DNA of 39,091 nt from Escherichia phage vB_EcoP_LNA5. Location: sequence record MZ311861.1; one strand, written 5' to 3'. This document shows positions 746 through 38,568 of this stretch, in pieces; the stretch's first letter is position 1, and the number at the start of each line of letters is the position of its first letter. Position numbers and translations under genes: made by a program. The notes below the pieces were generated by a model, which was not told the origin of the DNA, did not search any database, and saw only the letters and a program-made list of their open reading frames with translations.

Positions 746-809
746 CTTGAATCTCCTCTTTAAGTTAAGACTAAAGTCTATCTTATAGTCATATCTTAGG
801 TCCTAAAGT

Positions 810-828
810 CCCTATAGTGATAGTTTAG
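810..828 (-). promoter_or_regulatory. phage RNAP promoter (phi6.5 position)
   Basis: Plus strand ccctatagtgatagtttag, i.e. minus-strand CTAAACTATCACTATAGGG; one of 11 near-identical copies; T7-promoter-like CACTATAGG core. Confidence 0.85.
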
Positions 829-955
829 TGTTTCACCTATGGATGACTGTTGGATTGATAGGATATGACTATCGGCTAGACTCAGTGTTTAGGACGGTTG
901 TTCGACCCGAACCACTTGTACATGCAGTAAAGGGCCAGAAGTCCGACCCAGTAAA

Positions 956-2028: not shown

Positions 2029-2309
2029 TGCTTGACCTCGAATCGCAGGTTAGATACTCCGAACTGGTCATAACCAAAGTCGTCTACCAGCTCCTCCTTG
2101 ATGGTCTTCTTGAGGGCAATTTCAAGGGCAGACTCAGGGCCTGACTCGATTGCGGTTTTGACCAGAGCCAACTGAAGACCATCCAGCTTCTCACCCTCAG
2201 CGTAGGCTTTAGTCATCTCAGCCAGTTGGCGACACATGGTATCTTCTTCCTTTGAGTTAACAACCATCTTCAGGTCAAAACTCACACGAATACGTTTAGT
2301 AATAGCCAT
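2025..2309 (-). CDS. gp5.5-like protein
   Basis: Start moved to ATG at 2309 (MAITKRIRVSFDL.., compare T7 gp5.5 MAMTKKFKVSFDV..); AAGGAG upstream; TAATG overlap with the gene 5 stop. Confidence 0.8.
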   Translation of the reverse strand: MAITKRIRVSFDLKMVVNSKEEDTMCRQLAEMTKAYAEGEKLDGLQLALVKTAIESGPESALEIALKKTIKEELVDDFGYDQFGVSNLRFEVKQ

Positions 2310-4480: not shown

Positions 4481-4500
4481 GGTTAATCCTCCGTTTAGTC

Positions 4501-4540
4501 TAATCATAAAGGCCACTCGATGTGAATGACCTTGAGTCTA
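4501..4540 (-). promoter_or_regulatory. RNase III-like processing hairpin, class A
   Basis: Minus-strand TAGACTCAAGGTCA..(11-nt loop)..TGGCCTTTATGATTA; flanks match the recalled T7 R0.5 site; 7-bp stem AAGGUCA/UGGCCUU; three copies in the window. Confidence 0.6.
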
Positions 4541-4543
4541 GAC

Positions 4544-4708
4544 CTATAAGTCTGTACGCAAGAAGTGGTACATGAACTTCCGGTTAGCTTTCTTCCATGC
4601 CTTAGAGTCGAACCTCTGGTCTCCAAGAATGTTGGACAGACAGGTTGCTTCATCACTCCACCATTTGTACATGAACCGATGGTAGCGAGCTTTAAGTTTC
4701 TTTAACAC
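4544..4708 (-). CDS. small basic protein (gene 4.3/4.5 position)
   Basis: GTG start at 4708 preceded by GGAGGA with 8-nt spacing; 54 aa; lies between gp4 and gp5 as the small 4.x genes do in T7. Confidence 0.4.
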   Translation of the reverse strand: MLKKLKARYHRFMYKWWSDEATCLSNILGDQRFDSKAWKKANRKFMYHFLRTDL

Positions 4709-4759
4709 TAATGGTGTCCTCCGTATGGTGACTTCCAATCGCACTCAGGGCATTGACAT

Positions 4760-6463
<1,704 letters not shown>

Positions 6464-6474
6464 TCACTCCTTAG

Positions 6475-6553
6475 TGGCGTCTCCACGGGGATTCGAACCC
6501 TAATCGCAATAGGCCATCACGACCCGCCGCTCTACCGTTTGAGCTATGGAGAC
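6475..6553 (-). ncRNA. tRNA-like element (pseudo-tRNA?): canonical acceptor stem, D-arm, T-loop and encoded CCA, but no foldable anticodon arm
   Basis: Minus strand GTCTCCA-TA-GCTCAAACGGTAGAGC-..-TTCGAAT-..-TGGAGAC-G-CCA: perfect 7-bp acceptor stem, D-arm GCTC/GAGC with GG, T-loop TTCGAAT. The 26 nt between the D and T arms do not form a 5-bp stem with a U33/R37 loop by hand folding. Confidence 0.35.
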
Positions 6554-6601
6554 ATTTCTTAATCTCAAATGCGAACAAAGGGACAAGACTCGTGGTCTCA
6601 T

Positions 6602-6620
6602 CCCTACGGTGATAGTTTAG
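6602..6620 (-). promoter_or_regulatory. variant phage promoter (CACCGTAGG core; phi3.8/4 position)
   Basis: ccctacggtgatagtttag: two substitutions at -4/-3 relative to the window consensus; overlaps the lysozyme stop as other copies overlap upstream gene ends. Confidence 0.45.
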
Positions 6621-7075
6621 CCTCGGTCGGAAGTGACCAGTTCATTGGTAGACAGCCAGCGTTGCAAGTCGAAACTTGGACACGCCTTTGGTGCTACGTC
6701 ATGATGTGCTTTGATTTCTGCCTGAGGATACAAGTCCTTCAGGTCAGCCAGCTTGTTGCGCAGGGAGTTCATCTGGGCCGGAGTGAAGTTAGCTTCAAAC
6801 TTGCCCTTAGCGTCAATTCCACCTACAAGGCAGACGCCTACAGACCGTGAGTTCCAGTCCTTAACGTGTGACCCTACGACATTGACCGGGCGTCCCTCTT
6901 CCACAGTGCCATCGCGCTTGATGATAAAGTGGTAGCCTACGTCCAGCCAGCCTTGCTGCTTGTGCCACATACGGATGGTCTCTACCCCGATGTCCATCTC
7001 TGGCTTGGTAGCCGAACAGTGAACGAAGATAGCGTCGGTCCGGGACCGTGGATTGAACTGTACCTTACTTACCAT
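6617..7075 (-). CDS. N-acetylmuramoyl-L-alanine amidase / T7-type lysozyme gp3.5
   Basis: Recalled similarity to T7 lysozyme (..TDAIFVHCSATKP.., ..GWLDVGYHFIIKRDGTVE.., ..HHDVAPKACPSFD.., C-terminal NELVTSDRG). Confidence 0.95.
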   Translation of the reverse strand: MVSKVQFNPRSRTDAIFVHCSATKPEMDIGVETIRMWHKQQGWLDVGYHFIIKRDGTVEEGRPVNVVGSHVKDWNSRSVGVCLVGGIDAKGKFEANFTPAQMNSLRNKLADLKDLYPQAEIKAHHDVAPKACPSFDLQRWLSTNELVTSDRG

Positions 7076-7556
7076 TGTACACCACCAATTCTACGACCAC
7101 CAGATTCAGGTGCTGGGTGAAGCGTTGTGCGTCCGTGGTGTGCATCTGGAGATGCTTATGGTTGAAGACGTGTGAGTTGCTAATCTTCACGTAAACTTCT
7201 TCAGGCTTTCCATGGACGATGAAAGTCTGGCCTACACCAATCTTGTCGATGGTCAGGACTTCACGCTTCAAAGTCACAGGCGGTACGCTCGAAGCTGGCA
7301 GGACTTGAGTGGTTTGGACACCAGTGAGTTTCTCTTCCGGCTTGATTTCCTCAAGTTTCCAATTAAGGACCCATGCTCCCCACATACCCTCAGGCTGAGT
7401 ATTGCAGCCGTTAGACCCATGTTTGTATGCGCCTGGAATCTGGCACTCAACTAGGGTCATTCTTGAATCTGGTACGGGGTCATTCTCACACTTGGTAACT
7501 ATAGTCCCACTAGGCCAGCCATGCGCATCTACTAACAGTTTAAACTTCTTGCTCAT
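7065..7556 (-). CDS. hypothetical protein (163 aa) inserted between endonuclease I and lysozyme
   Basis: ATG at 7556 overlaps the gene 3 stop (ATGA) with AAGGAG 7 nt upstream; no counterpart recalled at this position in T7; no recognisable motif. Confidence 0.6.
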   Translation of the reverse strand: MSKKFKLLVDAHGWPSGTIVTKCENDPVPDSRMTLVECQIPGAYKHGSNGCNTQPEGMWGAWVLNWKLEEIKPEEKLTGVQTTQVLPASSVPPVTLKREVLTIDKIGVGQTFIVHGKPEEVYVKISNSHVFNHKHLQMHTTDAQRFTQHLNLVVVELVVYNGK

Positions 7557-8008
7557 CACTTAACTCCTTTCTTCTTGGGGATGAGTATACCTGAAGGCAG
7601 ACGTACAGTCGCCTCTCGAAGCCACTCAACCGGGATGAATTTATCGGCATACTTATAGCCGTTCTTTTCGCACCATGCGCCATACGTGGTTGGAGACCCT
7701 TTGTATAACTTGGAGCGTGAACTTGAGAACACGAACCGGATGTCTAACTCTGGGTGCTGTTCTCGTACCAGAAGGTGCTTCTTACGGTCATCACTATCGA
7801 AGATACCTTTGGTCTCCACGATGATACCGTTAGGAAGAATAAAATCTGGTGTGTACTTGTGGTCGGAAGCCGGAATCACATAGTTGATATAATGGCTTTC
7901 GTACTCCGCTTTGACGCCGTTCTGTTCCAGCCACTGCTGGTTCTTGGCTTCAAGTCCAGAGCGGTAGGCACCCACAGAGTGCCCCCGTTTTGCAGACCAT
8001 TTGGCCAT
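7556..8008 (-). CDS. endonuclease I (Holliday junction resolvase) gp3
   Basis: Recalled similarity to T7 gp3 (..YVIPAS.H.YTPDF.LPNGI.VETKG..DSDDRKKHLL.REQHPELDIR.VFSSS..KLYKGSPT.YG). Confidence 0.95.
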   Translation of the reverse strand: MAKWSAKRGHSVGAYRSGLEAKNQQWLEQNGVKAEYESHYINYVIPASDHKYTPDFILPNGIIVETKGIFDSDDRKKHLLVREQHPELDIRFVFSSSRSKLYKGSPTTYGAWCEKNGYKYADKFIPVEWLREATVRLPSGILIPKKKGVK

Positions 8009-8709
8009 TAGAAGTCGTAATCGCCACCAGAGTTGGAGTCGTCACCACCTTCGTAACCATCGTCAGACCCAAAGTCATCACCACCGAAGTCACCAACGGT
8101 TGACGCTTTGTAACCAGTACCAAGGTCTTCATCATCACCCCAGCCACCATCGCCACCAGCACCATCACCTTTCCATTCCTTCAGTTCTACCAGAAGGCAG
8201 GACTCAAGCTGGAGCTTAACGCTTGCACCAGTCGCAGCGTTCCACTTGAACGGCAGGACTTTAAACTTGACCTTCAGCTTAGACCCAGCGCAGATATTCG
8301 GGACGTCACGGATGAGTTTAGCATCGGTGTCGTAGAACCGTAATACGATAGGCTCGGACTTGCCGTCTTTCAGGTAAGACGCAAAGCATTTAAACTTAAG
8401 GGTAACAGTACCGTCACCATTCTCAATCCACGGCATGTCGCCTTCTCGTGGTTCAATAGGCTTCTTGCCACGCTGAACCTGAGGTGGGTTCTTCTCGTGG
8501 TCTGCGAGTGCTTTTGCATACGCATCGTCGTGAATCTTCTGTAAGACATCAATCATCTTACGGACCTTATGGTTGCTCAGGTCGAATGTCAGGTTAACCT
8601 TATGCTCACCACGCTCGTTAAACTTGGTGTCTGCTTTGTTCAGCCATGCGTAAGGCTCAACGATACCAGCTACCGGAGTGGTGAAAGTCTTCAGTTGCTC
8701 TTTAGCCAT
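8008..8709 (-). CDS. single-stranded DNA-binding protein gp2.5
   Basis: Recalled similarity to T7 gp2.5 (..GKKP..P.EGDMP...NGDGT.T.KFKC.AS.., ..GSKLKVK..., ..GASVKLQLES..LVEL..) with acidic C-terminal tail ending in F. Confidence 0.95.
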   Translation of the reverse strand: MAKEQLKTFTTPVAGIVEPYAWLNKADTKFNERGEHKVNLTFDLSNHKVRKMIDVLQKIHDDAYAKALADHEKNPPQVQRGKKPIEPREGDMPWIENGDGTVTLKFKCFASYLKDGKSEPIVLRFYDTDAKLIRDVPNICAGSKLKVKFKVLPFKWNAATGASVKLQLESCLLVELKEWKGDGAGGDGGWGDDEDLGTGYKASTVGDFGGDDFGSDDGYEGGDDSNSGGDYDF

Positions 8710-8753
8710 CGGTGTAAATCTCCTAATTTAAAAGTTACTAACTGGACGTCTGT

Positions 8754-8771
8754 CCTACAGTGATAGTTTAG
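8754..8771 (-). promoter_or_regulatory. phage RNAP promoter variant (phi2.5 position; CACTGTAGG core)
   Basis: cctacagtgatagtttag: single substitution at -3; directly upstream of the SSB gene. Confidence 0.7.
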
Positions 8772-8926
8772 GTCTCAGGGCGAATCCGTCCGACCACAAA
8801 CCCAGCGTCCTCATACTCTTGGGACTTCAGGGTAGCCTCTTCAAGAGACTTTGCGTACAACGGAACCTCGAAGGACTGGGTACGTCCCTCAAGTTCCACG
8901 ATGTATTTCTTCTCTACGTCAGTCAT
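8768..8926 (-). CDS. gp2-like host RNA polymerase inhibitor (52 aa)
   Basis: Hand-translated ORF below the 60-aa track cutoff: [43 protein letters not shown], compare recalled T7 gp2 ..SFEVPIYAETLDEA..AGFEVTRVRP; AAGGAG 8 nt upstream. Confidence 0.7.
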
Positions 8927-9803: not shown

Positions 9804-9833
9804 GTCGGCCTCCTTAGGTCGAGTTATGGTTGT

Positions 9834-9851
9834 CCTATAGTGATAGCTTAG
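9834..9851 (-). promoter_or_regulatory. phage RNAP promoter (phi1.5/1.6 position)
   Basis: cctatagtgatagcttag, one mismatch to the window consensus. Confidence 0.8.
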
Positions 9852-9887
9852 GGTCTAACTGGTGGCCCAGACGATAGCTTGCTAGCA

Positions 9888-9935: not shown

Positions 9936-11012
9936 TTAACTCTTAACGGTTGGGTTATCTTCCGTTCCACGCCAGCACTTGAAGCTAGGGTGACGAAGGG
10001 ATCCATCTGGGAACCGCTCCATGAAGAGGACTTCACACTGCCATCCTTCGTACGGATTGATTCCACCGAGAATATATGTATCAGTGTTACAGGCTTCCGT
10101 AAACTCATCCTTCTGTTCTTCAGTCAGACCACAAGCATTAACCACCATGCCATCCTCAAGCAGAACCTCAAAGCCAATCACCTTACCTTCGTTAGCCTTG
10201 CCCGTAGTCCCCCACACGAGGCCACACACGGTCCCGTCGATGGTCTCCTCAGGCTTCATTTTCCACATGCCTGACTTCTTGCCGCGCTTGTATTTACCCA
10301 GTGGGTCCTTGACTACCAGACCCTCATGTCCTTCCAGACGCTTCTGTTCGTACAGGGAGTTGAGCGACTCAAGGTCATAGACCGTGTGTGACTCAGACAG
10401 AACCCAGTCGATTTCAGGGAAGTATTTCTGGAGGAGAGGGACGATAGCTTCGGCCTTCAGGCGGGTTACGCTATGGATAGGACCTTCTGCTTTCGGGTCA
10501 AGTATGACGTTAAGGTCCACGATACCGTAGACCACCACGCGGATGTGGTCGGTTGCCAGATGGAAAGGGACCTTATGCTTCTTCTTGGTGTCGATGTCAG
10601 CATCTGGGTTGCCATTCCAAGCGTAGTTCTTAGTGTCTGACCACATGGTACGGATTAGACCTGAGGAAGTGTTGAAGTCGGTTGCAGGAACCATTACCTC
10701 ACCGTCAATCATCAGGCCAGTGCCTTCGTAGCCAGCTTGCTTCAGGAACCACCGCCAGTCGCTAGCCCTCTGTTGATCTTCCACGATGTTGTCGATGTTG
10801 GTCAGGACTGATAGCCAGCTCAGTGCCGGAAGAGGTTTAGACTCCCGGCTCAACCATTTGGCCTCACCAGTAGGGAAGACCGGGATGTTTATACGCACAC
10901 CGTCATACTTCACTTCAGCTTCGAGCGACCCGGCAGCTGCCAGTGCTTTCGTAACTCCTGACTCAGAGTAATCTACAGCGCGGTGCGGGTTAGTTTTAAT
11001 AGTCGTAGTCAT
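9936..11012 (-). CDS. ATP-dependent DNA ligase gp1.3
   Basis: Recalled collinear similarity to T7 ligase (IKTNP..AV, EIKYDGVR, ..MIDGE.., ..EGHEGL.VKDP...YKRGKKSG.WKMKPE.., ..GSLRHPSF...RGTEDNP); TAATG overlap with 1.2. Confidence 0.95.
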   Translation of the reverse strand: MTTTIKTNPHRAVDYSESGVTKALAAAGSLEAEVKYDGVRINIPVFPTGEAKWLSRESKPLPALSWLSVLTNIDNIVEDQQRASDWRWFLKQAGYEGTGLMIDGEVMVPATDFNTSSGLIRTMWSDTKNYAWNGNPDADIDTKKKHKVPFHLATDHIRVVVYGIVDLNVILDPKAEGPIHSVTRLKAEAIVPLLQKYFPEIDWVLSESHTVYDLESLNSLYEQKRLEGHEGLVVKDPLGKYKRGKKSGMWKMKPEETIDGTVCGLVWGTTGKANEGKVIGFEVLLEDGMVVNACGLTEEQKDEFTEACNTDTYILGGINPYEGWQCEVLFMERFPDGSLRHPSFKCWRGTEDNPTVKS

Positions 11013-11263
11013 TATTTCCAGCTCCTATAATCGTTCAATTGTTGTAAGCACCATTGCTCACAGCTAAAGATTTCATCTTCGGTAAATTCTCTGGATACCA
11101 GAAGCCTCCCACCATCTGCTTCAATTACTCTGACCAGAGTTTTTCCGTGGCACGGCGAGTAATCCATTAGGACATCAAGTCCTGCCTCACTCATCTCGCG
11201 GTGAGTCCGGCCTAACGCTGACCACTGGCTCGTGGATGCGTCGAATAACCAACGTTTACTCAT
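11012..11263 (-). CDS. gp1.2-like protein (dGTPase inhibitor family by position)
   Basis: 83-aa ORF with C-terminal pattern ..CEQWCLQQLNDYRSWK resembling recalled T7 gp1.2 ..CTDWLNHMYDQLKDWK; AGGAG upstream. Confidence 0.6.
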   Translation of the reverse strand: MSKRWLFDASTSQWSALGRTHREMSEAGLDVLMDYSPCHGKTLVRVIEADGGRLLVSREFTEDEIFSCEQWCLQQLNDYRSWK

Positions 11264-11274
11264 GGCTTACGCTC

Positions 11275-11478: not shown

Positions 11479-11520
11479 TAATCATGAAGGCCACGACTTT
11501 GAGTCATGACCTTGAGTCTA
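11479..11520 (-). promoter_or_regulatory. RNase III-like processing hairpin, class A (R1.1 position)
   Basis: TAGACTCAAGGTCATGACTCAAAGTCGTGGCCTTCATGATTAA on the minus strand; lies between the phi1.1-position promoter and gene 1.1, as recalled for T7. Confidence 0.6.
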
Positions 11521-11522
11521 AT

Positions 11523-11540
11523 CCTATAGTGATAGTTTAG
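11523..11540 (-). promoter_or_regulatory. phage RNAP promoter (phi1.1 position)
   Basis: cctatagtgatagtttag exact consensus. Confidence 0.85.
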
Positions 11541-11541
11541 G

Positions 11542-12087: not shown

Positions 12088-14769
12088 TTAAGCGAATGCA
12101 AAGTCTGAAGACAAGATGTCTTCGATATTTAGTTTACCTTTCTTCGGAAGCTCAGGCAACTTGTCGCGCTGACTTTCATGAAGCTGGTATTCAAACTGCT
12201 CGTAGAAGTCAAGCAGCACATCGTTATCGCGGTAAGTCTCTACCATCGTCTCACGGACTCCACGGAACAGATACTCAGCGTCAGCCGGGATGGTCCCGAA
12301 GCTATCGTGAATCACTGCGAATGACATCACGCCATACTTTCGGTTAGTGTGGACTACAGTCTTGCGGAGGTGGCTACCATCTTGTGAGTGGACGAAGTTC
12401 GGGCTAATGCCTGACTCCTGCTTGTGCTTGTCCAGCTCTTTCTTCGTGCCTTTGTTGACGGTAGGCTGAAGGTTGAATGACCCTAAGAACATCAGGTTCA
12501 GACGAGTGGTGTCCTTCTTGCGGTATTCCTGCCAGACAGGGAAACCATCAGGTGTGACCCAGTGTACCGGAAGGCAAGGCTTCAGGATTTCTCCAGTCTT
12601 CTTGTCCTTCACCTCAGCAGCCAGCAGCTTGGCAGCACCTTGAAGCCACTTCATCGCGTCAACCGCAGCAACTACTGTCACACTCACAGCTTCCCAAATC
12701 ATCTTTGCCATGAAGCGAGACGCTTGGCTTGGTTCAGTGAACATAGCGCCAGACCCTGAGTCAATCGCTGGCATCACGATGTCCTCGTAAACTTGGTCTG
12801 CGAAGCCGTACTCTTTCGACCCGTATGCCAGAGTCATGACTGAACGCTTAGTGACCTTGCGTGACATACCGTATGTCAGCCACTGACGGGCCAGCTCTCG
12901 TGTCCCCAGCTTGATACGTTCGGTAATCTCACCAGTTTTCTTATCCTCGTGAGTGACCATCTCGTTGTCAGTGCCGTTAATCAGCAGTACTTTAAGCTGC
13001 TCCTCAATGCGGTCAGACACAATGCGGTAGATGTCTTGTACCTTACCGGATGGCGTCAGGTTTACTGCATGTCCACCGATGTGGTCACGAAGCATAGCGC
13101 TGAAGTGCTGAATCCCAGAGCAGGACCCATCGAACGCTATCGGCAGCGAGCAGGAGTAAGACAAGCCGTGGTGCATTACGCCAGCATACTCGAAGCAGAA
13201 CGCTAGGAAGCAGAACGGAGAGTCTAACTTGCCCCACCACTCAATGCTATCCATCGGTGCCTTGGCAGCAGCCATGATGTTGTCGTGGTTATCTTCCACC
13301 CACTTGATACGCTCCTCGAAGGTGACTTTATCGACACCCGCGCAGTTTGCACCGTGGACCTTCAGCCATTTGAAACCATCAGCACCAATAGGCTTACCGA
13401 CTGCCAGAGTCAGAAGACCCTTTTGCATGTCGTTACCCTGAGGGTTGAACATCGGCACAGCGTAGACGCGACCGCGCCAGTCCATGTTATACGGGAACCA
13501 GATGGCCTTGAACTGAGAGAACTTGTTCGCTTGGTTGACGATAAAGCTCAGTGACAATCTTCGTGACTGTCTGGCCTTCTCGCGGCGATAGATACCAGCA
13601 GCAGCCTTCTTCCATGCCTTGAGTTCTTCTTCAGTCTCACCCGCATAGTCCTCAGGCTTCAGCGGTTCCATCTGAGGGAGGTCATCAATAGGCGTGTTGT
13701 TCAGCTTCTCGACCTTGTTCACCACGTCCAATACCTTCTTGTTCACTTTCCAAGGTGTATTCTGGATGATATTCACAGCGTCATAGACTTCAGGCATGTA
13801 TACGTCTTCATAACGTGCTACCGCAGACTTAGACCCTAAGCGAATCAATGGTAACGGTCTGCGACCTTTGGCCCAGTACCCACCACCTACGACACCAGTC
13901 CACGGCTTAGGTGGAACGACGCAAGGCTGGTAGACTGGGGCGATACCCGCAAGGCTGAATCCTCGTTGTGCCATCTTCTTGACCCAGAAGTCTGACAGGT
14001 GGACCATCTCTACGTCAGCCGCTGCATTACCAGCACCGTACCGCTTAAGCTCGACCAGTTGTGTTGACTGGATGACAATCTCGAGCATCTTGATGCCAAC
14101 GTGGACGGCCTCTGTAGGACTCCAAGTCCCCCACGCATCTTCCAGTTGGCCTTGCTCCAGCATGGACGCCTCGACCGCTTGCATGTAGGCTTTCTTGTAT
14201 GACGCCCCGGCCCGCTTATTCAGGTTATCAGCTATCGCCTTCTTGAAGTGCTCTTTCTCTTTGTCACGGATGCGACCGAAGCGGATTTCGTCCTCAAGTG
14301 TGCGACCTATCGCTGAGGCCATAGGTGTAATCGGGATCCCTTCAGGCTTGACCAGCTTGGAGAGTATGACCTTCAGTACGATAACCGCAGCAGACTCACA
14401 GGAGATGCGCAGAGATCGTTCCTTTACGGCCTTCTCTTCAGTGCTCAACATGGTGAACGCTACACTCGGACGAGAGGTTGACAGCTTCCCGTCTTGGCCT
14501 TCGTGCCACTCCCTGACGGCTTGCGCAATCTTAGGGACCAGAGTCTGCATCAAAGGCTTGGCGACCTGATTGTCTGCCAGTTCCCCGCGCTCGGTCTGGC
14601 GCTCAAGGTTCTTGATGAAACGTCGCTCGCCTTCTGTATATGCCTCATGCTCAAGCTGAAGCTGTTTGACTGCAAGGTCTTGCCCGTAGTGGTCGGCCAG
14701 CAGGTTAAACGGCTCAATGGCGTTCGACACATCAGAGAAGTCGTGTTTGTCAATAGAGATGACGCTCAT
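12088..14769 (-). CDS. single-subunit DNA-directed RNA polymerase gp1
   Basis: 893-aa ORF collinear with recalled T7 RNA polymerase (..IPFNTLADHYG.., ..WFPYNMDWRGRVYAV.MFNPQGNDM.KGLLTLA.GKPIG.., ..HDSFGTIPADA.., C-terminal ..SDFAFA). Specificity-loop region reads ..QPTVNKGTKKELDKHKQESG.. versus recalled T7 ..QPTINTNKDSEIDAHKQESG... Confidence 0.98.
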   Translation of the reverse strand: MSVISIDKHDFSDVSNAIEPFNLLADHYGQDLAVKQLQLEHEAYTEGERRFIKNLERQTERGELADNQVAKPLMQTLVPKIAQAVREWHEGQDGKLSTSRPSVAFTMLSTEEKAVKERSLRISCESAAVIVLKVILSKLVKPEGIPITPMASAIGRTLEDEIRFGRIRDKEKEHFKKAIADNLNKRAGASYKKAYMQAVEASMLEQGQLEDAWGTWSPTEAVHVGIKMLEIVIQSTQLVELKRYGAGNAAADVEMVHLSDFWVKKMAQRGFSLAGIAPVYQPCVVPPKPWTGVVGGGYWAKGRRPLPLIRLGSKSAVARYEDVYMPEVYDAVNIIQNTPWKVNKKVLDVVNKVEKLNNTPIDDLPQMEPLKPEDYAGETEEELKAWKKAAAGIYRREKARQSRRLSLSFIVNQANKFSQFKAIWFPYNMDWRGRVYAVPMFNPQGNDMQKGLLTLAVGKPIGADGFKWLKVHGANCAGVDKVTFEERIKWVEDNHDNIMAAAKAPMDSIEWWGKLDSPFCFLAFCFEYAGVMHHGLSYSCSLPIAFDGSCSGIQHFSAMLRDHIGGHAVNLTPSGKVQDIYRIVSDRIEEQLKVLLINGTDNEMVTHEDKKTGEITERIKLGTRELARQWLTYGMSRKVTKRSVMTLAYGSKEYGFADQVYEDIVMPAIDSGSGAMFTEPSQASRFMAKMIWEAVSVTVVAAVDAMKWLQGAAKLLAAEVKDKKTGEILKPCLPVHWVTPDGFPVWQEYRKKDTTRLNLMFLGSFNLQPTVNKGTKKELDKHKQESGISPNFVHSQDGSHLRKTVVHTNRKYGVMSFAVIHDSFGTIPADAEYLFRGVRETMVETYRDNDVLLDFYEQFEYQLHESQRDKLPELPKKGKLNIEDILSSDFAFA

Positions 14770-14830: not shown

Positions 14831-14842
14831 TAGACCTTTAGT

Positions 14843-14860
14843 CCTATAGTGATAGTTAAG
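14843..14860 (-). promoter_or_regulatory. phage RNAP promoter immediately upstream of the RNAP gene
   Basis: cctatagtgatagttaag; about 75 bp upstream of the gene 1 ATG. Confidence 0.8.
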
Positions 14861-14866
14861 TCAGAA

Positions 14867-15193
14867 TCACTTGCATATCAGTGGGTTAGCGTGAAGATGA
14901 CTGAAGTCACCATGAGTCGTGTGCTTGATGGTTGACCGTTGGTCTATCGCCTTCCAGCCTGAGACTAAAAGTTTACCATCGTCAGTGATTGGTCGTCCAC
15001 CATACACCAGACACATCAGCTCGGACTTATGTCCCTCAGCCCGGAGTCTTGCTTGCAGTACCCGGTCCCGCTCCTGCTGTTGACGTGCGGAGTGACTTGA
15101 CGTTCCGTGACGATACCCGGTAGCCAGTAGGCTTAACATTTGCATGTCTGCGTCCATAGAGTGTACCAGATTAATCCCGTATGACTTGTTCAT
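14867..15193 (-). CDS. hypothetical early protein (108 aa)
   Basis: ATG overlaps the upstream ORF stop (TAATG); GGGAG upstream; no motif recognised; occupies the position where T7 has gene 0.7, but is not kinase-like. Confidence 0.55.
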   Translation of the reverse strand: MNKSYGINLVHSMDADMQMLSLLATGYRHGTSSHSARQQQERDRVLQARLRAEGHKSELMCLVYGGRPITDDGKLLVSGWKAIDQRSTIKHTTHGDFSHLHANPLICK

Positions 15194-15396
15194 TACAGTT
15201 TGCTCCCAAGTGTTGCTATATCCCAGACGTTCGCTAAGTTACGCATGAATCGTCCGTTAGGTTGACGTACAGTCCAGCTACCCAGACGTACATATTTGAA
15301 TTTGTAGACTTTACGCGCTTTGTTGATGTCTCTCACCAGCACGTAGGCGATAAGTCCATAGCCTATGGCTATCAATAGTGTGATACTCATAGTCAT
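15193..15396 (-). CDS. small membrane protein (67 aa), start uncertain
   Basis: Track ORF begins at GTG 15567 without a ribosome-binding site; an internal ATG at 15396 overlaps the stop of an upstream micro-ORF (ATGA) and yields MTMSITLLIAIGYGLIAYVLV.. with one predicted TM helix. Confidence 0.35.
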   Translation of the reverse strand: MTMSITLLIAIGYGLIAYVLVRDINKARKVYKFKYVRLGSWTVRQPNGRFMRNLANVWDIATLGSKL

Positions 15397-15497
15397 AAGC
15401 CCCATAACAGTTGAGTAAGGACCGGTAGTTTGCAGACTAGAGTAAACATTCCCCACGCTACGAAGCCTGAGATAGTCCAGATGATTGCAGTGCTCAT
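15393..15497 (-). CDS. possible 34-aa hydrophobic micropeptide
   Basis: AGGAG 7-8 nt upstream of ATG; MSTAIIWTISGFVAWGMFTLVCKLPVLTQLLWGL; translationally coupled to the downstream ORF. Confidence 0.3.
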   Translation of the reverse strand: MSTAIIWTISGFVAWGMFTLVCKLPVLTQLLWGL

Positions 15498-15629
15498 AGT
15501 TAACTCCTATCAATGTAAGTGGTAATCTTTGAGGCCACCTATCAGTCGATGACCTCTCGTCTATCACTCAGTACCATCACGTCAGTGTTATGGTCAAGCT
15601 ATGATTTGGTTCTCTCCTGTTTATTTAGG

Positions 15630-17491: not shown

Positions 17492-17718
17492 ATACAGATA
17501 GAGACTCAAAGAAGACCCATAGTCCCAACCTATCGTCCTTCCCTAAGCCATAGCCTCAGCCTATCGTTGACCTTAAGTCTTGACCATCTGTCCAACCTTA
17601 TGATAGACTGGCACGGGTAGGGCCTTTGGTCTGGACTGAAAGAGGGCCTATGGGGAGACTTGAGGTTCTTGAAGTGTGAGATGTGGTCTCAAACTTTTGG
17701 TCCAAAACTCATCGTCAC

Positions 17719-18077: not shown

Positions 18078-18260
18078 ATGCTACATACCTCCTGTATCTA
18101 TGGTCGGTGACTATCTGTATTGGAGGGATTATGATTAATATCACCCTCCTTCCATCGGTGCAAGCCTTAGGTAAGAACTCGAAGTCTTCCTCCTAAGGTC
18201 TTGCATAAAGTCTGCATATGTATATTCACTACAGTAATACTATAAGTAACCGGGGGTCTT

Positions 18261-18279
18261 CCCTATAGTGATAGTTAAG
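18261..18279 (-). promoter_or_regulatory. phage RNAP promoter (phi-OR position)
   Basis: ccctatagtgatagttaag, about 95 bp past the large terminase stop. Confidence 0.8.
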
Positions 18280-18374
18280 TCCAAACTCCTTGTAAAACAG
18301 TATGTTAGACTGGTAGTAACTATAGGTTACTAACTGCTTATTCATGCAGCTTTCACCTATAGTTATTCATTCAG

Positions 18375-23465: not shown

Positions 23466-23515
23466 TATGCCTCCTTTGTGATTTAAACGGAGACCTATGG
23501 TAGCGCCTCCAGTTT

Positions 23516-23533
23516 CCTATAGTGATAGTTTAG
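23516..23533 (-). promoter_or_regulatory. phage RNAP promoter (phi17 position)
   Basis: cctatagtgatagtttag, overlapping the gp16 stop and about 50 bp upstream of the gene 17 ATG. Confidence 0.85.
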
Positions 23534-26500
23534 TCCTTGATGTGGATGCCCTGCTCCTCAAACGTTCCAAGCAGCAACTTCTGGGTAATCGGGTCATTCG
23601 GTACAAGTTCACGGAACGTGTTATACATCCCGGTCATGTAGTCTCGCTCGTTGACACGGGTATCAGCCTTGAGGTATCCCGCCAAGTTGTAAGCCGTCGC
23701 ACCAACGTTAGCAGCATAGCCGAAAGCCGGGACCTGCTCAAGGAAGTTGCCGACAACATTCATTACCGGACCACTGGAAGCAGCACCAAAGGCGATTGGC
23801 TTCTCCGTCTTCTCGGTAGGTGATCGCGGAAGGATTGACGAGCGGAGCATCTTAGTGTCCTCATATCCAGCGATGCCTCCCAGAATGTTGGCGACCCCAA
23901 GAGGACCACCTAAGTGGGAGCTACGGGACAGCGCCGCATAGCCAATCATTGTTGGGTTAAGGGCTTGCTTCAGATACTCTCGGTCACGACCGTCCTGCAT
24001 AGCGTAAGCCTTTATGTGCGCCTGAGCCATGTAGTACATTCCAGCCAGACCCATAGACATAACCGTTGATAGCGCAGCGTCCATAGCTCGGTTGTTCTTG
24101 GTGGCATTGTAGAAGGTACGCATGGTTCGACCGTTGATAGACTTGATAACGAAGTTCTTAAACTGCAAGACAGTCTTCGCTATCGGACCATAAGCCTTGG
24201 CGTCCATGTTGCTCAGCTTGTGGGGGCGGAGCAGGGTCTCATCAGCGATGGTGTCACCCATACGCCAGAGGTCCATAGCCCTTGGGTCCTGACTGAACGC
24301 CTTCTTATCCTTGATGGTGTACTTCCCGTCTGGACCACGAGTCACTGACTCACGGATTAGGGACTTAATGCCCTTCCACTGCTCGTCAGAGATACCAGCG
24401 GTCTTCAGCCAGCGGTCATCGAACTTACGCTTACTACCAGTCAGGCTATGCTCCACGATGTCAGACAGGAAGCCCTGACGTCCAGCATCTAACAGGTAGT
24501 TGGTCGTACCGTTGAGGACTTTAGTGAACGGAGAGCGTACTGCAAGTTCGCCAGTGTAATACTTGGCAGTCCCCAGAGCTGTAGCTGTACCACGACCGAG
24601 GTCACTGTAAGATCGCAGACGGTCAATGACATCCTGTTTAGACGGACGGATTGAGTCATCCAGTTCCTTACCGAAGATAACATTGTGCAGGTCCTTAATC
24701 TCTGAGGCCCCAACCTTCTTGTTACGGAAGGCTAGGTCACGGAAAATTGGGACTCCATGAAGCATTGCACGAACGTTACCACGAGCCAGCATACCACCAA
24801 TCTCCGTTAAGTTCTGAACACCCATGTAGGCATTCTTAGCGAAGAACGATAGGTCTGTCATTGTGCGCATCACGGTAGCGAAGGCCGCATCATCAGCACC
24901 ATCACGTCGAGCACGACCAGTTAGAATCTTCAAAGTGTCACGTAAGGTAGATACTTCACCTTTCAACTTACCGTCATCCCCAGCCTTGTTCATCAGGGTC
25001 TCAACCAAGTCCTTCATGTCCTTCGTGGTCTTGCCTGTACCAGCCATGATAGCAATATCGCCATTAACTCGACGGTTGTAGGCCGGGACAATCTTGTCCA
25101 TGTCCCACTCACGCAGGTTGTTGACACTGAAGGTCTGACCGTTAGGTAGGACGATTGACATATCGCTATCGAACAGGTTACGAGCCTCAAGGAAGCTGTT
25201 GTTCTCCAGACCCACCAGACCATTGATGTTCTCTTCCATTACGGATGAACGCTCGAACTGCTCGGTGTGAGAGATACCATAAGCCTTATCGTTGGCGTAC
25301 TTATCAACCGCAGCCGCAAGTCCTTCTGGAGTCAACGTAGGGTCAGCCTCTAAGAGTGCCTCGTCCACACGTTTCTTGACTTCAGGTCGAGACGCATAGC
25401 TGGTCAACCATGACTTCTTGATGGCCTCCTGTAGTGCCTCTGGACTCCCAAGCTCCTTGATGTACAGCTCCTTCATCTGGTTGCTATACACATGCGGGAC
25501 GTATGTTCCCTTGAAGCGGCTACCCGGAAAGATAGACTGAGCGTCTGGGCGACCAAACATCGCCGGGTTCTCCATCATCTCACGCTTGGCGTCAAACTGG
25601 TTCTTCAGCAGGTCATAGACTTTCAGTTCTCCCGGAGTCAATTCAGCCTTCAGGTTTCCGCTACCATCTTCGATAGCCATAGACACGCGCTGATAGATGT
25701 CTTGACGGAATGCGCCAGAGTCTCGCCAGAATGCTGTCTGGAAGTACGGGTCCTTTAGTGCCTCAGTAACCGCATCGTCGATGTCATTGTAGAACCGATG
25801 GTCCACAGCACGAAGTCTCTCGAATACGTCTGACGCAGTTGTCCCTATTTTACCTGAGGCCCCAGACTGCATACCAGTCGGTGAACGTACTAAGTCAGCA
25901 GCTACTCCACGAATCTCAGGGTTCTCGGACCGAAGCAGCTTCAGGCCAATCTCAGTCAGCCCACCAAGGTTCACACCAGCAGCGGCACGTTCAGGCTCAA
26001 TCACTTCGTCAAAGACTTTACGTGTCTTAGGGTTCAGAGGATTCTCACCAATCAGGATTGAACCATCTTCCAGTCGTACACTACCCGGCTCGTTCGGAAC
26101 GTCTGCGAACTTAACACCTTGATGACTAAAGGTCTCCTCTCCTTCACGGATTGGCATACGCGACAGGTCCTGACCATCAACATTACGTGCAGTCTCACGG
26201 GCTTCCAGACGTGTGGCTGGTCCGGCGAACTCGTTGGTTGACTTGCCTAAGGCCTTGCCGATAGCGTCCCCGATAGCTGTCATTCCCCCACCGAAGAGAG
26301 CACCGCCCATAATTGCCTCAGCCACATGAGCGTCCCCACCAGCAACTGAGGTTCGAGCAATCTCGGATGCCCCAGCCATAGCACCAGACTGAGCAGCCAC
26401 AGTGAACATCTTGTTGACTAGCTTCCCACCTTTACCTACCTGCCCAGCAATAGGAACGTAGGTCAGAGGGTCCACGCCAGCACCAATCACACCAGCCGCC

Positions 26501-27417: not shown

Positions 27418-27848
27418 GTCTTTCTCCTCAAGATATTTCTAATAGAAACCGTACTCACTCCATAGCGTTCCGCCAAGAGTGAAACCTTTAGGCCGCTGGA
27501 CCTTATGTCTCTCACAGTTTCCTCAGTGAGCTTAGACACTCCTATGGAGCATCCTGACGCTTGGCGACCTCTATTCACCTTATCCTTTATGTTATCGGCT
27601 TGGGTGCCGACTTCAAGGTGTCTGGGGTTTATACAGGACGGGTTGTCACACTTGTGGCGGACAACGTACCCATCGGGTATAGGACCGTTAGCAAGCTCGT
27701 AAGCAAGTCTGTGCGCTCCATACTTTACCCTATTAATCATTATCCTTCCATAGCCGGACTTCTCAATGCTTCCGGTGAAGCGGATACAGCCAGACTCTTC
27801 TGTTACTGACAGTTCTGCCAGTCTCTCACTGGCTGTCCCGTTCTTCAT
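27399..27848 (-). CDS. HNH homing-type endonuclease
   Basis: 149-aa ORF with HNH signature ..GYVVRHKCDNPSCINPRHLEVGTQADN.. and helix-turn-helix-like C-terminal region; AAGGAG 6 nt upstream; starts 2 nt after the gp15 stop and overlaps the gp16 start by 19 nt. Confidence 0.85.
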   Translation of the reverse strand: MKNGTASERLAELSVTEESGCIRFTGSIEKSGYGRIMINRVKYGAHRLAYELANGPIPDGYVVRHKCDNPSCINPRHLEVGTQADNIKDKVNRGRQASGCSIGVSKLTEETVRDIRSSGLKVSLLAERYGVSTVSIRNILRRKTWQHVE

Positions 27849-27850
27849 GT

Positions 27851-31187: not shown

Positions 31188-31219
31188 AAAGTCTCCTTAT
31201 AACCTTAAGGGCCTATAGT

Positions 31220-31238
31220 CCCTATAGTGATAGTTAAG
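31220..31238 (-). promoter_or_regulatory. phage RNAP promoter (phi13 position), flanked by a 12-bp inverted repeat
   Basis: ccctatagtgatagttaag; flanked by aagggcctatag (31207..31218) and ctataggccctt (31245..31256). Confidence 0.85.
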
Positions 31239-31263
31239 GTAAATCTATAGGCCCTTCAATAAG

Positions 31264-33630: not shown

Positions 33631-33858
33631 TTAAATCATACTCATTAGGACGTATCCCTCAGCGATGTCACCAACGTCAGCAATGTGGACAACCTTACGT
33701 GCTACCTGTTGTCCAGTATACCCGTTGTCCCACTCATTCAGGATAAGCCAGTCGCCAACCTTAAAGTCCCGGTCGTTAAGTCTCAGCTCTGCTGTCTTTA
33801 GACCCAGTTGTACCGGACCAAAGTGCTGGCGGTGAATCTTCAGGTTGTGACTAGCCAT
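33631..33858 (-). CDS. DUF3850/ASCH-like small protein inserted between tail tubular genes A and B
   Basis: 75-aa ORF (MASHNLKIHRQHFGPVQLGLKTAELRLNDRDFKVGDWLILNEWD..YTGQQV..V) fits the recalled DUF3850 pattern; GGGAGGG upstream; TAATG overlap with the gp11 stop. Confidence 0.7.
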   Translation of the reverse strand: MASHNLKIHRQHFGPVQLGLKTAELRLNDRDFKVGDWLILNEWDNGYTGQQVARKVVHIADVGDIAEGYVLMSMI

Positions 33859-34540: not shown

Positions 34541-34577
34541 AAAAAAACCCCTCAAGCACCCGAAGGCACCCAAGGGG
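34541..34577 (-). terminator. T-phi-like late terminator after the capsid gene
   Basis: Minus strand CCCCTTGGGTGCC-TTCG-GGTGCTTGAGGGG followed by TTTTTTT; closely resembles the recalled T7 T-phi sequence; 7 bp past the 10B stop. Confidence 0.85.
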
Positions 34578-34583
34578 TTTCAA

Positions 34584-35896: not shown

Positions 35897-36001
35897 ATGA
35901 TAATTCTCCTATTCAATTGAAAGATAAAGTTTATTACTTACTGTACGCCCAATCCGTATGGACTGAAGTAATAGGGAAACCTTGAGTCTTTCTCTTGGTC
36001 T

Positions 36002-36020
36002 CCCTATAGTGATAGTTTAG
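36002..36020 (-). promoter_or_regulatory. phage RNAP promoter (phi10 position)
   Basis: ccctatagtgatagtttag, about 105 bp upstream of the capsid ATG. Confidence 0.85.
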
Positions 36021-36022
36021 TC

Positions 36023-36910: not shown

Positions 36911-36985
36911 TGAGTCATTCTCCTTTGATTGAAATGGTAGGAACAACTGGACTAGAAACCTACAAATTGTAGACCAGACGTTGTT

Positions 36986-37003
36986 CCTATAGTGATAGTT
37001 TAG
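36986..37003 (-). promoter_or_regulatory. phage RNAP promoter (phi9 position)
   Basis: cctatagtgatagtttag, overlapping the portal stop. Confidence 0.85.
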
Positions 37004-38568
37004 GCTTGAGCCATGTCCTCACCAGCTCCCTGACCCACAGCAGCACCCATGTTAGCACCAGCAGCAGACGCACCATTGACCACAGCTCCTTGAGCGGATT
37101 GTTCAGCCATGCGTTGCAACTTCTCGTCCTGAGTCAGTAGCAGACCAGCGGTGTCAATGCCTAAGGCATTCAGCAGTCGCAGCTTCAGTGTAGGCAAGTT
37201 AATGTCTGGGTCCTGTTGTAGAGGCTGTAGCCCGGTCATCATGTTGACTGCCTGAGTCAGCTTCTCTAAGTCCTGACCACGACCTAACGCTTCCAGACCA
37301 GTGGAGACCGTAGGCTCTACCGCTTCTTTCGGAAGGTCTGGAATCATGCCAGCAGACTGAAGTTGGTTCATCAGCACACGGACGATAGGCAACTGAAGCT
37401 CTTGTGACTGTACTGAGTACACGCCACCTAAGGTCGCCTCCAGTTCGCCAGCAACATAACGAATCTCTTCAGCAGTGACACGCTCGGCATTACGCTGAAC
37501 AGCACTATTAAGAAGGAAGGCCCAGCCTAAACGTTGCTCGATAGCGTCAGCCACCGACTTAGCAATCGTAAAGTCCTGACCTTTCGTCAGTTGCAGGAAG
37601 TTGATGTCCTCAACTCGACCAGCCACGAACTCACCTGTAGCCGCCTTGTTCAGACGTCTAGGTTGCGTGATACCGTTCGGGTTAACGAGGCCCACCACCT
37701 TGGAGGCTACCTTAGCCATTTTTGTGATAGCTTCTGTAATCGTCTCCAGCGAGTTGAGGTCGCCCAGATACTCCTCGCAGTAAGAACGACCGTAGTCTTC
37801 ACCATCCAGTCGAACCATTCGTACCGGGATGTATGGACATGCAGTCAGCGGGTAGGAACCATCGGTCCCTGTTACCTCAATTCCTTCCACTTCCTCGTAG
37901 CGCAGATACTCGTCGTCCTGACGGTAGATGTGCGTATACACTTCCAGCTCGGTGTCAGGCTCATAGTCGTCTGCATTGAGTTGAGACTTCACGTCTTCCG
38001 GTAGAGCACTGAAAGCTACCTTGTCGAGAGTCACAATCTGCAAGATGTTACCGAACGCATCACGTTGAACAACGTAAGACACTAATCGGTACATCCGCAT
38101 CGGACTGTAAGTACCCTGTTCAGGCTCTGGAATGTAAAGCAGACAGTTACCGGAGACGATAAGCTGCTTCAGAGCTTCGAACAATGGCACACGGAAACTG
38201 TTAGTCTCCATGTAGGCCATCAACACACGCTCGACCATAGCAAGCCCTTCGTCAACACGAGCAGCAGCCTCTGAGTCCTGACTCAAGGTCTTGGCCTCAT
38301 ATTCGGAGACTGTCAGTCGCATCCACGGTGACTGAGGGAATAACGCCAACATCAGCTTTGCAGCCAAGTTGTTCAAGCAGCGAGCACCTACAGCTTGCCA
38401 CGGAGTGGTATATTCAGTAGACGAGTTGTCTGATTCCTTAGGAAACAGTGACGGGATAGTGACAGCAGCACAGTTCTGAGCGCGTGTCTCATATGGCTGT
38501 CTACCGTTCTTCAGTCGGTCATAGACCGCTTTGGCTCCTTCAGCAGCGAACCCTTCACGTTCAGCCAT
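37000..38568 (-). CDS. portal (head-tail connector) protein gp8
   Basis: Recalled collinear similarity to T7 gp8 (MAE.., ..YETRAQNCA..TIPSLFPK.SDN.ST.Y.TPWQAVGAR.LNNLA.KLMLALFP.., ..YRLVSYVVQRDAFGN.LQ.VT.., ..ACPYIP.RMVRLDGE.YGRSY.EEYLGDL.SLE..); AAGGAGG upstream. Confidence 0.97.
   Translation of the reverse strand: MAEREGFAAEGAKAVYDRLKNGRQPYETRAQNCAAVTIPSLFPKESDNSSTEYTTPWQAVGARCLNNLAAKLMLALFPQSPWMRLTVSEYEAKTLSQDSEAAARVDEGLAMVERVLMAYMETNSFRVPLFEALKQLIVSGNCLLYIPEPEQGTYSPMRMYRLVSYVVQRDAFGNILQIVTLDKVAFSALPEDVKSQLNADDYEPDTELEVYTHIYRQDDEYLRYEEVEGIEVTGTDGSYPLTACPYIPVRMVRLDGEDYGRSYCEEYLGDLNSLETITEAITKMAKVASKVVGLVNPNGITQPRRLNKAATGEFVAGRVEDINFLQLTKGQDFTIAKSVADAIEQRLGWAFLLNSAVQRNAERVTAEEIRYVAGELEATLGGVYSVQSQELQLPIVRVLMNQLQSAGMIPDLPKEAVEPTVSTGLEALGRGQDLEKLTQAVNMMTGLQPLQQDPDINLPTLKLRLLNALGIDTAGLLLTQDEKLQRMAEQSAQGAVVNGASAAGANMGAAVGQGAGEDMAQA

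Follow-up and report, generated by a model that had tools for sequence, protein, structure and literature searches.

The polymerase/promoter pairs closest to the one described here are those of phages K1F and Ro45lw. A hairpin graft spanning Q744-I761 converted T7 RNA polymerase (RNAP) into T7(K1F), with 17-fold induction and orthogonality (Temme 2012; PMC3458549). The graft is listed as 754S/756N/761V and recognises ACTAT (PMC11880802, Table 2); according to published work, these three changes are enough to redirect T7 RNAP. The listing of T7(K1F) in that table omits 744T; T7 position 744 is Thr in K1F and in the enzyme studied here. The graft leaves the TAATA of T7 and the N-terminal domain of T7 in place. 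The K1FR sigma fragment was derived from T7(K1F), and expression and mutator systems built on the native K1F RNAP and PK1F work in Halomonas and in E. coli (PMC12218169). Work on the purified Ro45lw RNAP defined ACTTAACTATCACTATAGGGA as its minimal promoter, with G at +1 (PMC12272871).

The window, i.e. the whole stretch of 39,091 nucleotides from Escherichia phage vB_EcoP_LNA5 (MZ311861.1) that was analysed, can be compared directly with these systems. It is, with a very high degree of confidence, a K1F-group genome in which gene 1 codes for a K1F-type single-subunit RNAP and 11 repeats are the middle and late promoters of this enzyme, with a specificity of the T7 style.

Genome placement

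The window is a complete genome of the genus Kayfunavirus (K1F-group T7-like coliphages), circularly permuted and reverse-complemented. Placement in the genus was judged by similarity to the type phage K1F, with a usual threshold of about 70%, and by conserved gene order. Genome-wide nucleotide similarity to K1F is 82.5% (one-way identity x coverage), above this threshold, and 40 of the 42 K1F proteins queried have matches in the window, collinear except for the HNH protein of the K1F DNA polymerase insert. At the species level (Kayfunavirus LM33P1 or another named species), where at least 95% genome-wide nucleotide similarity applies, the one-way and non-reciprocal similarity to LM33_P1, 22664BS1 and SHAK9454 is 91.7-93.7%, four genomes having been compared in full. 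The window differs from the K1F genome by an LM33_P1-type tailspike where K1F has an endosialidase, by extra HNH and DUF3850 genes and by the absence of the DNA polymerase insert. T7 has its terminator T-phi between gene 10 and gene 11. A T-phi-like intrinsic terminator after the capsid gene is common to T7 and the window, and its position between these two genes agrees with the T7 layout (Table 1).

The RNA polymerase

Residues 1-893 of the gene 1 product align end to end with residues 1-883 of T7 RNAP (E=0 against T7 RNAP structures), and the protein contains the Pfam domains RNA_pol (PF00940, E=1.9e-106) and RPOL_N (PF14700, E=8.7e-15). It was aligned with the RNAPs of T7 (sequence from NC_001604), T3, K11 and SP6. 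Its D547/K641/D822 correspond to the catalytic D537/K631/D812 of T7, which are thus kept, and fold and domain order are common to both enzymes; unlike the T7 enzyme, that of the window has 11 additional residues inserted behind position 108 (T7 numbering). Judged by domains and catalytic residues, i.e. from its sequence, the protein is a T7-like single-subunit RNA polymerase. Identity is 64% with T7 RNAP, 64% with T3 and 60% with K11, but reaches 94% (839/893) with Ro45lw and 98.5% (880/893) with K1F (NC_007456), whose enzyme is also 893 aa long.

The 13 substitutions that separate the window enzyme from K1F RNAP all lie outside the recognition elements, and the interval T7 735-780 has none. 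Only residue 92, Q in the window and Pro in K1F, adjoins the AT-rich recognition loop. This proximity, together with the differences in temperature optimum and end homogeneity reported among related enzymes (PMC12272871), could suggest that some of these substitutions subtly alter promoter preference or biochemical properties. Such an effect is improbable: the promoters, positions -17 to -13 included, are the same as those of K1F, and residue 92 varies among relatives, since the enzyme of phage 22664BS1 has Pro there like K1F. By analogy, the window enzyme would initiate at these promoters, and discriminate against those of T7 and T3, in the same way as its relatives, i.e. the T7(K1F) graft, the native K1F RNAP and the Ro45lw RNAP.

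The specificity hairpin and its promoter bases

The promoter-specificity beta-hairpin (T7 744-761) is the element that would read promoter positions -12 to -7 in the major groove. The base-contacting T7 residues R746/N748/R756/Q758 correspond to R756/N758/N766/Q768 of the window, so that the four columns read R/N/N/Q in the alignment with T7, T3, K11 and SP6. The window hairpin, TTRLNLMFLGSFNLQPTV, is that of K1F without any difference. Compared with T7 it carries Q744T, Q754S, R756N and I761V and keeps R746, N748 and Q758; R756 to N is the sole change of a base-contacting residue. The hairpin also matches the mutation list published for T7(K1F) (754S/756N/761V; PMC11880802, Table 2), and 132 phage records contain a 62-aa loop segment with at least 99% identity to that of the window. 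The Ro45lw RNAP has the same base-contacting residues as the window enzyme; its 54 substitutions include M750L and T765S (T7 numbering) in or just past the hairpin.

On the DNA side, positions -12 to -8 read ACTAT in ten of the 11 sites and GCTAT in the remaining one, as in K1F, where T7 has CGACT; the preliminary description had correctly reported ACTA in place of CGAC. T3 and K11 belong to the same family and recognise promoters in the same mode. Like the window promoters, that of T3 has A at -12 and C at -11, but it continues with CC at -10/-9 (ACCCT at -12 to -8; AACCC in annotated records), and the K11 promoter reads GGGCA (AGGGC or AGGAC in annotated records). The polymerase columns 748/756/758 differ likewise: N/N/Q in the window, N/R/Q in T7, D/R/Q in T3 and K/N/K in K11. 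None of the combinations of promoter -12 to -8 and residues 748/756/758 that define T7 (Teseptimavirus), T3 and K11 specificity is found in the window, and the earlier statement that the promoter is neither that of T3 nor that of K11 is borne out by comparison with the promoters of annotated records. As far as sequence comparison can assign it, the RNAP with its promoters fits the K1F-type specificity class, by the identity of the hairpin, S754/N756/V761, the retained N748 and Q758 and the ACTAT promoters.

The polymerase and its promoters are a co-varied pair whose specificity is distinct from those of T7, T3, K11 and SP6, and this pair is the already known K1F-type polymerase/promoter system, already used as an orthogonal system. 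It is highly improbable that it represents a previously undescribed specificity supplying a new orthogonal expression system. The promoter is indeed unlike those of T7, T3 and K11 at -12 to -9, and the enzyme is just 64% identical to T7 RNAP; against novelty stand a hairpin and promoters identical to those of K1F, the presence of the same loop in the 132 phage records, the engineering of the K1F system since 2012 and the characterisation of the native K1F and Ro45lw enzymes. The preliminary description had proposed a co-varying pair usable as an orthogonal system: specificity and usability hold, whereas the implied novelty does not. That novelty had been made conditional on the same promoter and loop being absent from any well-characterised phage polymerase. 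K1F matches in both, Ro45lw uses this promoter and, because T7(K1F)/PK1F, the native K1F RNAP and the purified Ro45lw RNAP are already characterised, the novelty is refuted on its own terms.

The switch had also been related to a changed residue in the column of T7 N748. The classical determinant of the switch from T7 to T3 specificity is N748D (cited in PMC3458549), and this column holds D in T3 and K in K11. A cause of this kind has almost no chance of being correct for the window: three independent alignments place Asn at the T7-748 column in the window (N758), in K1F and in Ro45lw, and it is R756 that changes. Both peptide strings on which the claim was built are present and had been correctly aligned with each other; the segment quoted as the specificity-loop stretch, TVNKGTKKELDKHKQESG, is equivalent to T7 760-777, and the N748 position lies outside it.

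In the mechanism proposed for the K1F-type pair, the retained R746 and Q758 would match the common T at -8 and C at -7, N748 being retained too, and the combination of R756N, Q754S and I761V would retarget recognition from CGACT to ACTAT. We infer these contact details of hairpin-promoter recognition, including the bases contacted by N766. N748 is kept although promoter positions -11/-10 shift from GA to CT. A simple code in which N756 recognises A at -9 was considered and rejected, K11 having N756 as well and yet C at -9. A code of one residue for one base therefore fails to explain the switch.

The promoter set

The 18-mer CTAAACTATCACTATAGG occurs 11 times in the window, always on the minus strand (five exact copies, five with one mismatch and one with two), against 0.01 occurrences expected by chance (mean over shuffles, up to two mismatches); the eleven minus-strand copies initially reported are confirmed. 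Scored with a 23-bp weight matrix, the 11 sites reach 29-37 bits and the next best site of the window 15 bits, a separation that is partly by construction as the matrix was built on the same 11 sites. A relaxed core search and the weight matrix revealed no convincing additional or cryptic promoter in the window: the best extra candidate, at 778-800, has only 15 bits, and the upstream half is missing from the core-like matches at 17248, 18317 and 18356.

From -8 to +2 (TCACTATAGG), eight of the 11 sites are the same as T7, in line with the T7-like core described previously. Further upstream, positions -17 to -9 read (A/C)CT(A/T)AACTA, in contrast with TAATACGAC in T7. All sites are located on the coding strand, in intergenic stretches or where a gene terminates, so placed that each putative promoter would lie just 5' of a gene block. 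Transcription is predicted to start with the first of the two terminal G residues, by analogy with the +1 mapping on the Ro45lw ortholog.

The window consensus is the same as the consensus CTWAACTATCACTATAGG published for another Kayfunavirus, and exact copies of the 18-mer occur in 77 IMG/VR stretches, whose source genomes measure about 39-40 kb. Each of the 11 promoters has a syntenic counterpart in K1F, where the consensus is the same, and eight of the 11 23-mers are identical; the three other window promoters differ by one or two bases, at -17, -3 or +3 to +6. Even the unusual bases, G at -12 and G at -3, occur at the same promoters in both phages, and K1F 10867, the ortholog of the weakest window promoter, is likewise variant at -4/-3. 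The Ro45lw minimal promoter is found exactly at window positions 18260-18280, and the promoter that precedes gene 1 in Ro45lw differs by an A at -2. The promoter ACTAAACTATCACTATAGGGAGA is equal from -13 to +6 to the engineered PK1F design (T7 promoter with CGACT changed to ACTAT), PK1F having been reconstructed from PMC11880802 Table 2 with ACTAT at -12 to -8 and the remainder of the wild-type T7 promoter.

That the repeats are another dispersed element (packaging, replication or recombination sites) is hardly conceivable, as nothing specific speaks for it beyond the fact that repeats by themselves are no proof of promoter function, and it conflicts with the T7 core, with the single orientation and location 5' of gene blocks, with the annotation of identical sequences as promoters in Ro45lw and with the in vitro transcription of the same 21-mer by Ro45lw RNAP.

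Table 1. Predicted features of the polymerase/promoter pair and of its surroundings in the window
Feature	Position	Strand	Remarks
Gene 1, T7-like single-subunit DNA-dependent RNA polymerase, K1F type, 893 aa	12088..14769	-	exact ORF
Promoter-specificity beta-hairpin codons, TTRLNLMFLGSFNLQPTV (aa 754-771, T7 744-761)	12457..12510	-	same as K1F
Segment quoted in the preliminary description, TVNKGTKKELDKHKQESG (aa 770-787, T7 T760-G777)	12409..12462	-	past the base-contacting residues
AT-rich recognition loop equivalent codons, DGKLSTSRPSV	14461..14493	-	alignments with K1F and T7
Promoter (-17..+6) ACTTAACTATCACTATAGGACTA, 75 nt upstream of gene 1 ATG	14839..14861	-	ortholog K1F 2475
Promoter CCTAAACTATCACTATAGGATTA, downstream of gene 1 and gp06 homolog	11519..11541	-	identical: K1F 5553, annotated Ro45lw promoter
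Promoter CCTAAGCTATCACTATAGGACAA, upstream of gene 1.6	9830..9852	-	identical: K1F 7184, Ro45lw phi1.6
Promoter CCTAAACTATCACTGTAGGACAG, gene 2 end, upstream of gene 2.5	8750..8772	-	identical: K1F 8500, Ro45lw phi2.5
Promoter GCTAAACTATCACCGTAGGGATG, weakest match, gene 3.5 end, upstream of gene 4	6599..6621	-	ortholog K1F 10867
Promoter ACTAAACTATCACTATAGGGACT, upstream of gene 6.5	807..829	-	identical: K1F 17178
Promoter CCTAAACTATCACTATAGGAACA, portal gene 8 end, upstream of scaffold gene 9	36982..37004	-	identical: K1F 19999
Promoter ACTAAACTATCACTATAGGGAGA, upstream of major capsid gene (phi10 equivalent)	35999..36021	-	identical: K1F 20998
Promoter CCTTAACTATCACTATAGGGACT, upstream of gene 13	31217..31239	-	identical: K1F 25322
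Promoter ACTAAACTATCACTATAGGAAAC, gene 16 end, upstream of tailspike gene 17	23512..23534	-	identical: K1F 32598
Promoter ACTTAACTATCACTATAGGGAAG, near right genome end (phiOR equivalent)	18258..18280	-	contains ACTTAACTATCACTATAGGGA
T-phi-like intrinsic terminator, 17-bp stem then T run	34544..34581	-	downstream of capsid gene

The AT-rich recognition loop and the gene 1 promoter

The N-terminal AT-rich recognition loop is the element that would read promoter positions from about -17 to -13. Its equivalent in the window, DGKLSTSRPSV, is two residues longer and less basic than KAKRGKRPT of T7, and is identical to that of K1F apart from the flanking residue 92. C at -16 and T at -15 are invariant (11 of 11 sites) and co-occur with this loop. 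Gene 1 of the window is preceded by a phage promoter, for which the T7 record has no annotated counterpart; this promoter is kept in all 14 of the 14 Kayfunavirus loci examined. It is possible, though rather doubtful, that the AT-rich loop forms a second co-varying module reading C-16/T-15 and, as a separate matter, that the gene 1 promoter establishes a positive-feedback loop on polymerase synthesis.

Significance

The finding is real but ordinary, because the RNAP and its 11 promoters match the characterised K1F pair, and as new knowledge it counts for little. Among the specificities mapped for T7-like polymerases, that of the K1F pair is a known class, and synthetic biology already employs the pair as a part. 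The analysis is useful in that it corrects one point: N748 is unchanged in the K1F class, whose hairpin signature is R756N with Q754S and I761V. The window enzyme, 13 substitutions away from that of K1F, adds one natural variant to an orthogonal polymerase that is already validated, and it could be paired with existing PK1F parts. Should the AT-rich loop prove to be a second module, it could extend orthogonality past the hairpin graft; should the promoter 75 nt 5' of gene 1 sustain polymerase synthesis, Kayfunavirus would possess a feedback that is absent in T7.

Promoter repeats

The polymerase/promoter pair of the window is of the known K1F type, named here after the Kayfunavirus type phage K1F (NC_007456). 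The 39,091-bp window contains 11 copies of the 18-mer CTAAACTATCACTATAGG, always on the minus strand (five are exact, five carry a single mismatch and one carries two), against a mean of 0.01 matches expected from dinucleotide-preserving shuffles. Alignment of the flanked sites defines a 23-bp element, (A/C/G)CT(A/T)A(A/G)CTATCAC(T/C)(A/G)TAGG(G/A)(A/C/T), with an information content of about 36 bits. The 11 sites score 29-37 bits against 15 bits for the best other position on either strand, a gap that is partly by construction since the weight matrix was derived from the sites it scores, and that leaves exactly 11 credible promoter copies. One lies near the right end, and the others lie directly 5' of genes 1, 1.1-1.3, 1.6, 2.5, 4, 6.5, 9, 10, 13 and 17. 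A promoter-like but degenerate copy, CCTAAGATATGACTATAAGATAG, scores 15 bits (real sites, 29-37); it is located 30 bp downstream of one of the promoters and may be a decayed duplicate.

From -8 to +2 (TCACTATAGG) the promoter is the same as that of T7, whereas at positions -12 to -9 it has ACTA in place of the CGAC of T7, and its upstream half reads (A/C)CT(A/T)A where T7 has TAATA. C-16 and T-15 are invariant (11/11 sites). The preliminary description was correct in separating this repeated element from the T7, T3 and K11 promoters: those extracted from annotated records (CAATACGACTCACTATAG..., CATTAACCCTCACTAAC... and AATTAGGGCACACTATAGG..., respectively) are all unlike it.

Features of the window
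Feature	Position (strand)	Remark
Site of K1F DNA polymerase insert	2284-2465 (-)	insert absent
Degenerate promoter copy	778-800 (-)	
Promoter next to degenerate copy	807-829	
Stretch downstream of the 11519-11541 promoter	11007-11266	~250 bp
Gene 1, RNA polymerase	12088-14769 (-)	893 aa
11-aa insertion EEKAVKERSLR	14407-14439 (-)	after T7 residue 108
AT-rich recognition loop codons	14461-14493 (-)	
Gene 1 promoter	14839-14861 (-)	75 nt upstream of start codon at 14769
sigma-70-like match	17118-17089	TTGACA-18-TAATAT
Overlap of mapped K1F ends	17501-17681	181 bp
Exact match to Ro45lw minimal 21-mer	18260-18280	
Tailspike	21285-23465 (-)	726 aa; Phage_T7_tail, Tail_spike_N
HNH_3 homing-endonuclease ORF	27399-27848 (-)	149 aa; between genes 15 and 16
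Segment around HNH_3 ORF	27387-27850	
DUF3850/ASCH-domain ORF	33631-33858 (-)	75 aa; inserted between tail genes 11 and 12
T-phi-like terminator	34544-34581 (-)	strong; 3' of capsid gene; 17-bp stem then T run
Small ORF	34584-34790 (-)	68 aa; between capsid gene and terminator

The polymerase and its recognition elements

The assignment of gene 1 to a phage RNA polymerase is confirmed: it is exactly one ORF, whose product aligns over its full length with T7 RNA polymerase structures (E=0) and carries the Pfam domains RNA_pol and RPOL_N. The window enzyme was aligned with the translations from the T7 (NC_001604), T3, K11, SP6, K1F and Ro45lw records, the last being a Kayfunavirus whose polymerase has been purified. 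The four base-specific contact residues of T7, R746, N748, R756 and Q758 (PMC11880802), sit in QTRLNLMFLGQFRLQPTI, whose window counterpart is TTRLNLMFLGSFNLQPTV. It follows from this alignment that the N748 equivalent is an unchanged Asn (window N758), and the R746 and Q758 equivalents are likewise conserved. The segment in which a change at N748 had been read, TVNKGTKKELDKHKQESG (window residues 770-787), corresponds to T7 T760-G777, past the contact residues. At T7 position 756 Asn (window N766) stands in place of Arg, accompanied in the hairpin by Q754S, I761V and Q744T. HMMER with the PDB chain as target and an independent MAFFT alignment both return this register. The interpretation proposed earlier is right in spirit and wrong about N748.

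A simple code of one residue for one base fails: K11 shares the Asn at T7 position 756 yet has C at -9, and N748 is kept while -11 and -10 change. Compared with that of T7, the AT-rich recognition loop has 2 additional aa and is less basic. The 11-aa insertion is found in K1F-type polymerases.

Relation to published K1F-type systems

The K1F polymerase is identical to the window enzyme at 880/893 residues (98.5%). None of the 13 substitutions falls within T7 735-780, and one flanks the AT-rich recognition loop (window Q92, Pro in K1F). The K1F genome holds 11 matches to the 18-mer, one per syntenic position; 8/11 of the 23-mers are identical, and the two phages share odd variants before genes 1.6 (G at -12), 2.5 (G at -3) and 4 (-4/-3). 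The Ro45lw polymerase is 94% identical. More widely, 132 phage records carry the 62-aa segment that spans the loop at 99% identity or higher, and 77 IMG/VR stretches, taken from contigs of some 39-40 kb, contain the exact 18-mer.

Polymerase subfamilies were defined through this beta-hairpin, with one promoter binding-region consensus for each (Temme et al. 2012, PMC3458549). When the K1F hairpin took the place of T7 Q744-I761, and the K1F consensus that of T7 promoter positions -12 to -7, the result was T7(K1F), with 17-fold induction and orthogonality to the T7, T3 and N4 variants (PMC3458549). The graft, 754S/756N/761V, reads ACTAT (PMC11880802, Table 2) and coincides with the hairpin differences and promoter bases of the window. 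The 'K1F cluster' is one of nine natural specificity clusters (PMC11880802), and the K1FR sigma fragment derives from T7(K1F) (Segall-Shapiro et al. 2014). Native K1F polymerase and its promoter PK1F serve in expression and targeted-mutagenesis systems with low cross-talk in Halomonas and E. coli (PMC12218169). For purified Ro45lw polymerase, +1 was mapped to G and the minimal promoter is ACTTAACTATCACTATAGGGA, which the window contains; full activity survived the removal of 3' bases only (PMC12272871), consistent with the importance of upstream bases. For another Kayfunavirus, a genome report from 2026 lists the consensus CTWAACTATCACTATAGG and describes its copies as promoters. Since the T7(K1F), native K1F and Ro45lw systems are published, the pair is already known, and the supposed absence of its hairpin and promoter from well-characterised polymerases does not hold.

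Genome identity and other features

The polymerase gene shows 95-98.8% nucleotide identity to dozens of E. coli Kayfunavirus phages. Against K1F, one-way identity times coverage reaches 82.5%; against the related phages LM33_P1, 22664BS1 and SHAK9454 it is 91.7-93.7%. Among the queried K1F proteins 40/42 have a match. These are collinear and on the minus strand, the sole exception being the HNH of the DNA polymerase insert (~600 bp, K1F 14937-15534); this insert is absent, so the window DNA polymerase gene is uninterrupted. Both K1F genome ends map to one overlap, in which the direct terminal repeat is collapsed to a single copy. The window thus represents the entire genome as its reverse complement, circularly permuted by assembly and with its physical ends within that overlap.

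Some records show oddities. In OR594184 (SHAK9454, marked UNVERIFIED) the polymerase sequence matches at 5552-8233 and the RNAP-like annotation, displaced by 2775 bp, stands at 2777-5458; NC_031937 (LM33_P1 RefSeq) divides the polymerase into two CDSs, and several RefSeq records label this T7-like enzyme 'N4-like RNA polymerase'.

Only the N-terminal 224 aa of the tailspike are common with the K1F endosialidase, and the C-terminal 501 aa match the tail fibre of LM33_P1, an O25b-specific phage, at 99% identity; from this sequence likeness, the host receptor is probably not the K1 capsule. The segment around the HNH_3 ORF has no counterpart in K1F, LM33_P1, 22664BS1 or SHAK9454 and so looks like a recent mobile insertion. 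The stretch 11007-11266 has no match in the same four genomes. The DUF3850/ASCH ORF is missing in K1F and present in LM33_P1-type relatives, annotated 'RNA-binding protein'. The 68-aa ORF has no Pfam match; LM33_P1 and 22664BS1 have annotated small ORFs homologous to it.

Transcription

The evidence supports a standard T7-type mechanism. Beginning at the left end, host RNA polymerase would transcribe the early region; the window has sigma-70-like matches, in a number not above chance. The phage polymerase would then start at the 11 promoters, with a T-phi-like terminator beyond the capsid gene. Specificity at -12 to -8 would be set by the hairpin signature, which is sufficient in a T7 background according to graft experiments (PMC3458549); the base contacts of N766 are inferred.

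The gene 1 promoter is of full strength and phage type. In 14/14 distinct Kayfunavirus loci examined, K1F and Ro45lw included, a promoter lies 75-81 nt from the polymerase ATG (that of Ro45lw has A at -2), whereas only an E. coli promoter is annotated there in the T7 and T3 records. A phage promoter directly 5' of the polymerase gene suggests positive feedback on polymerase synthesis.
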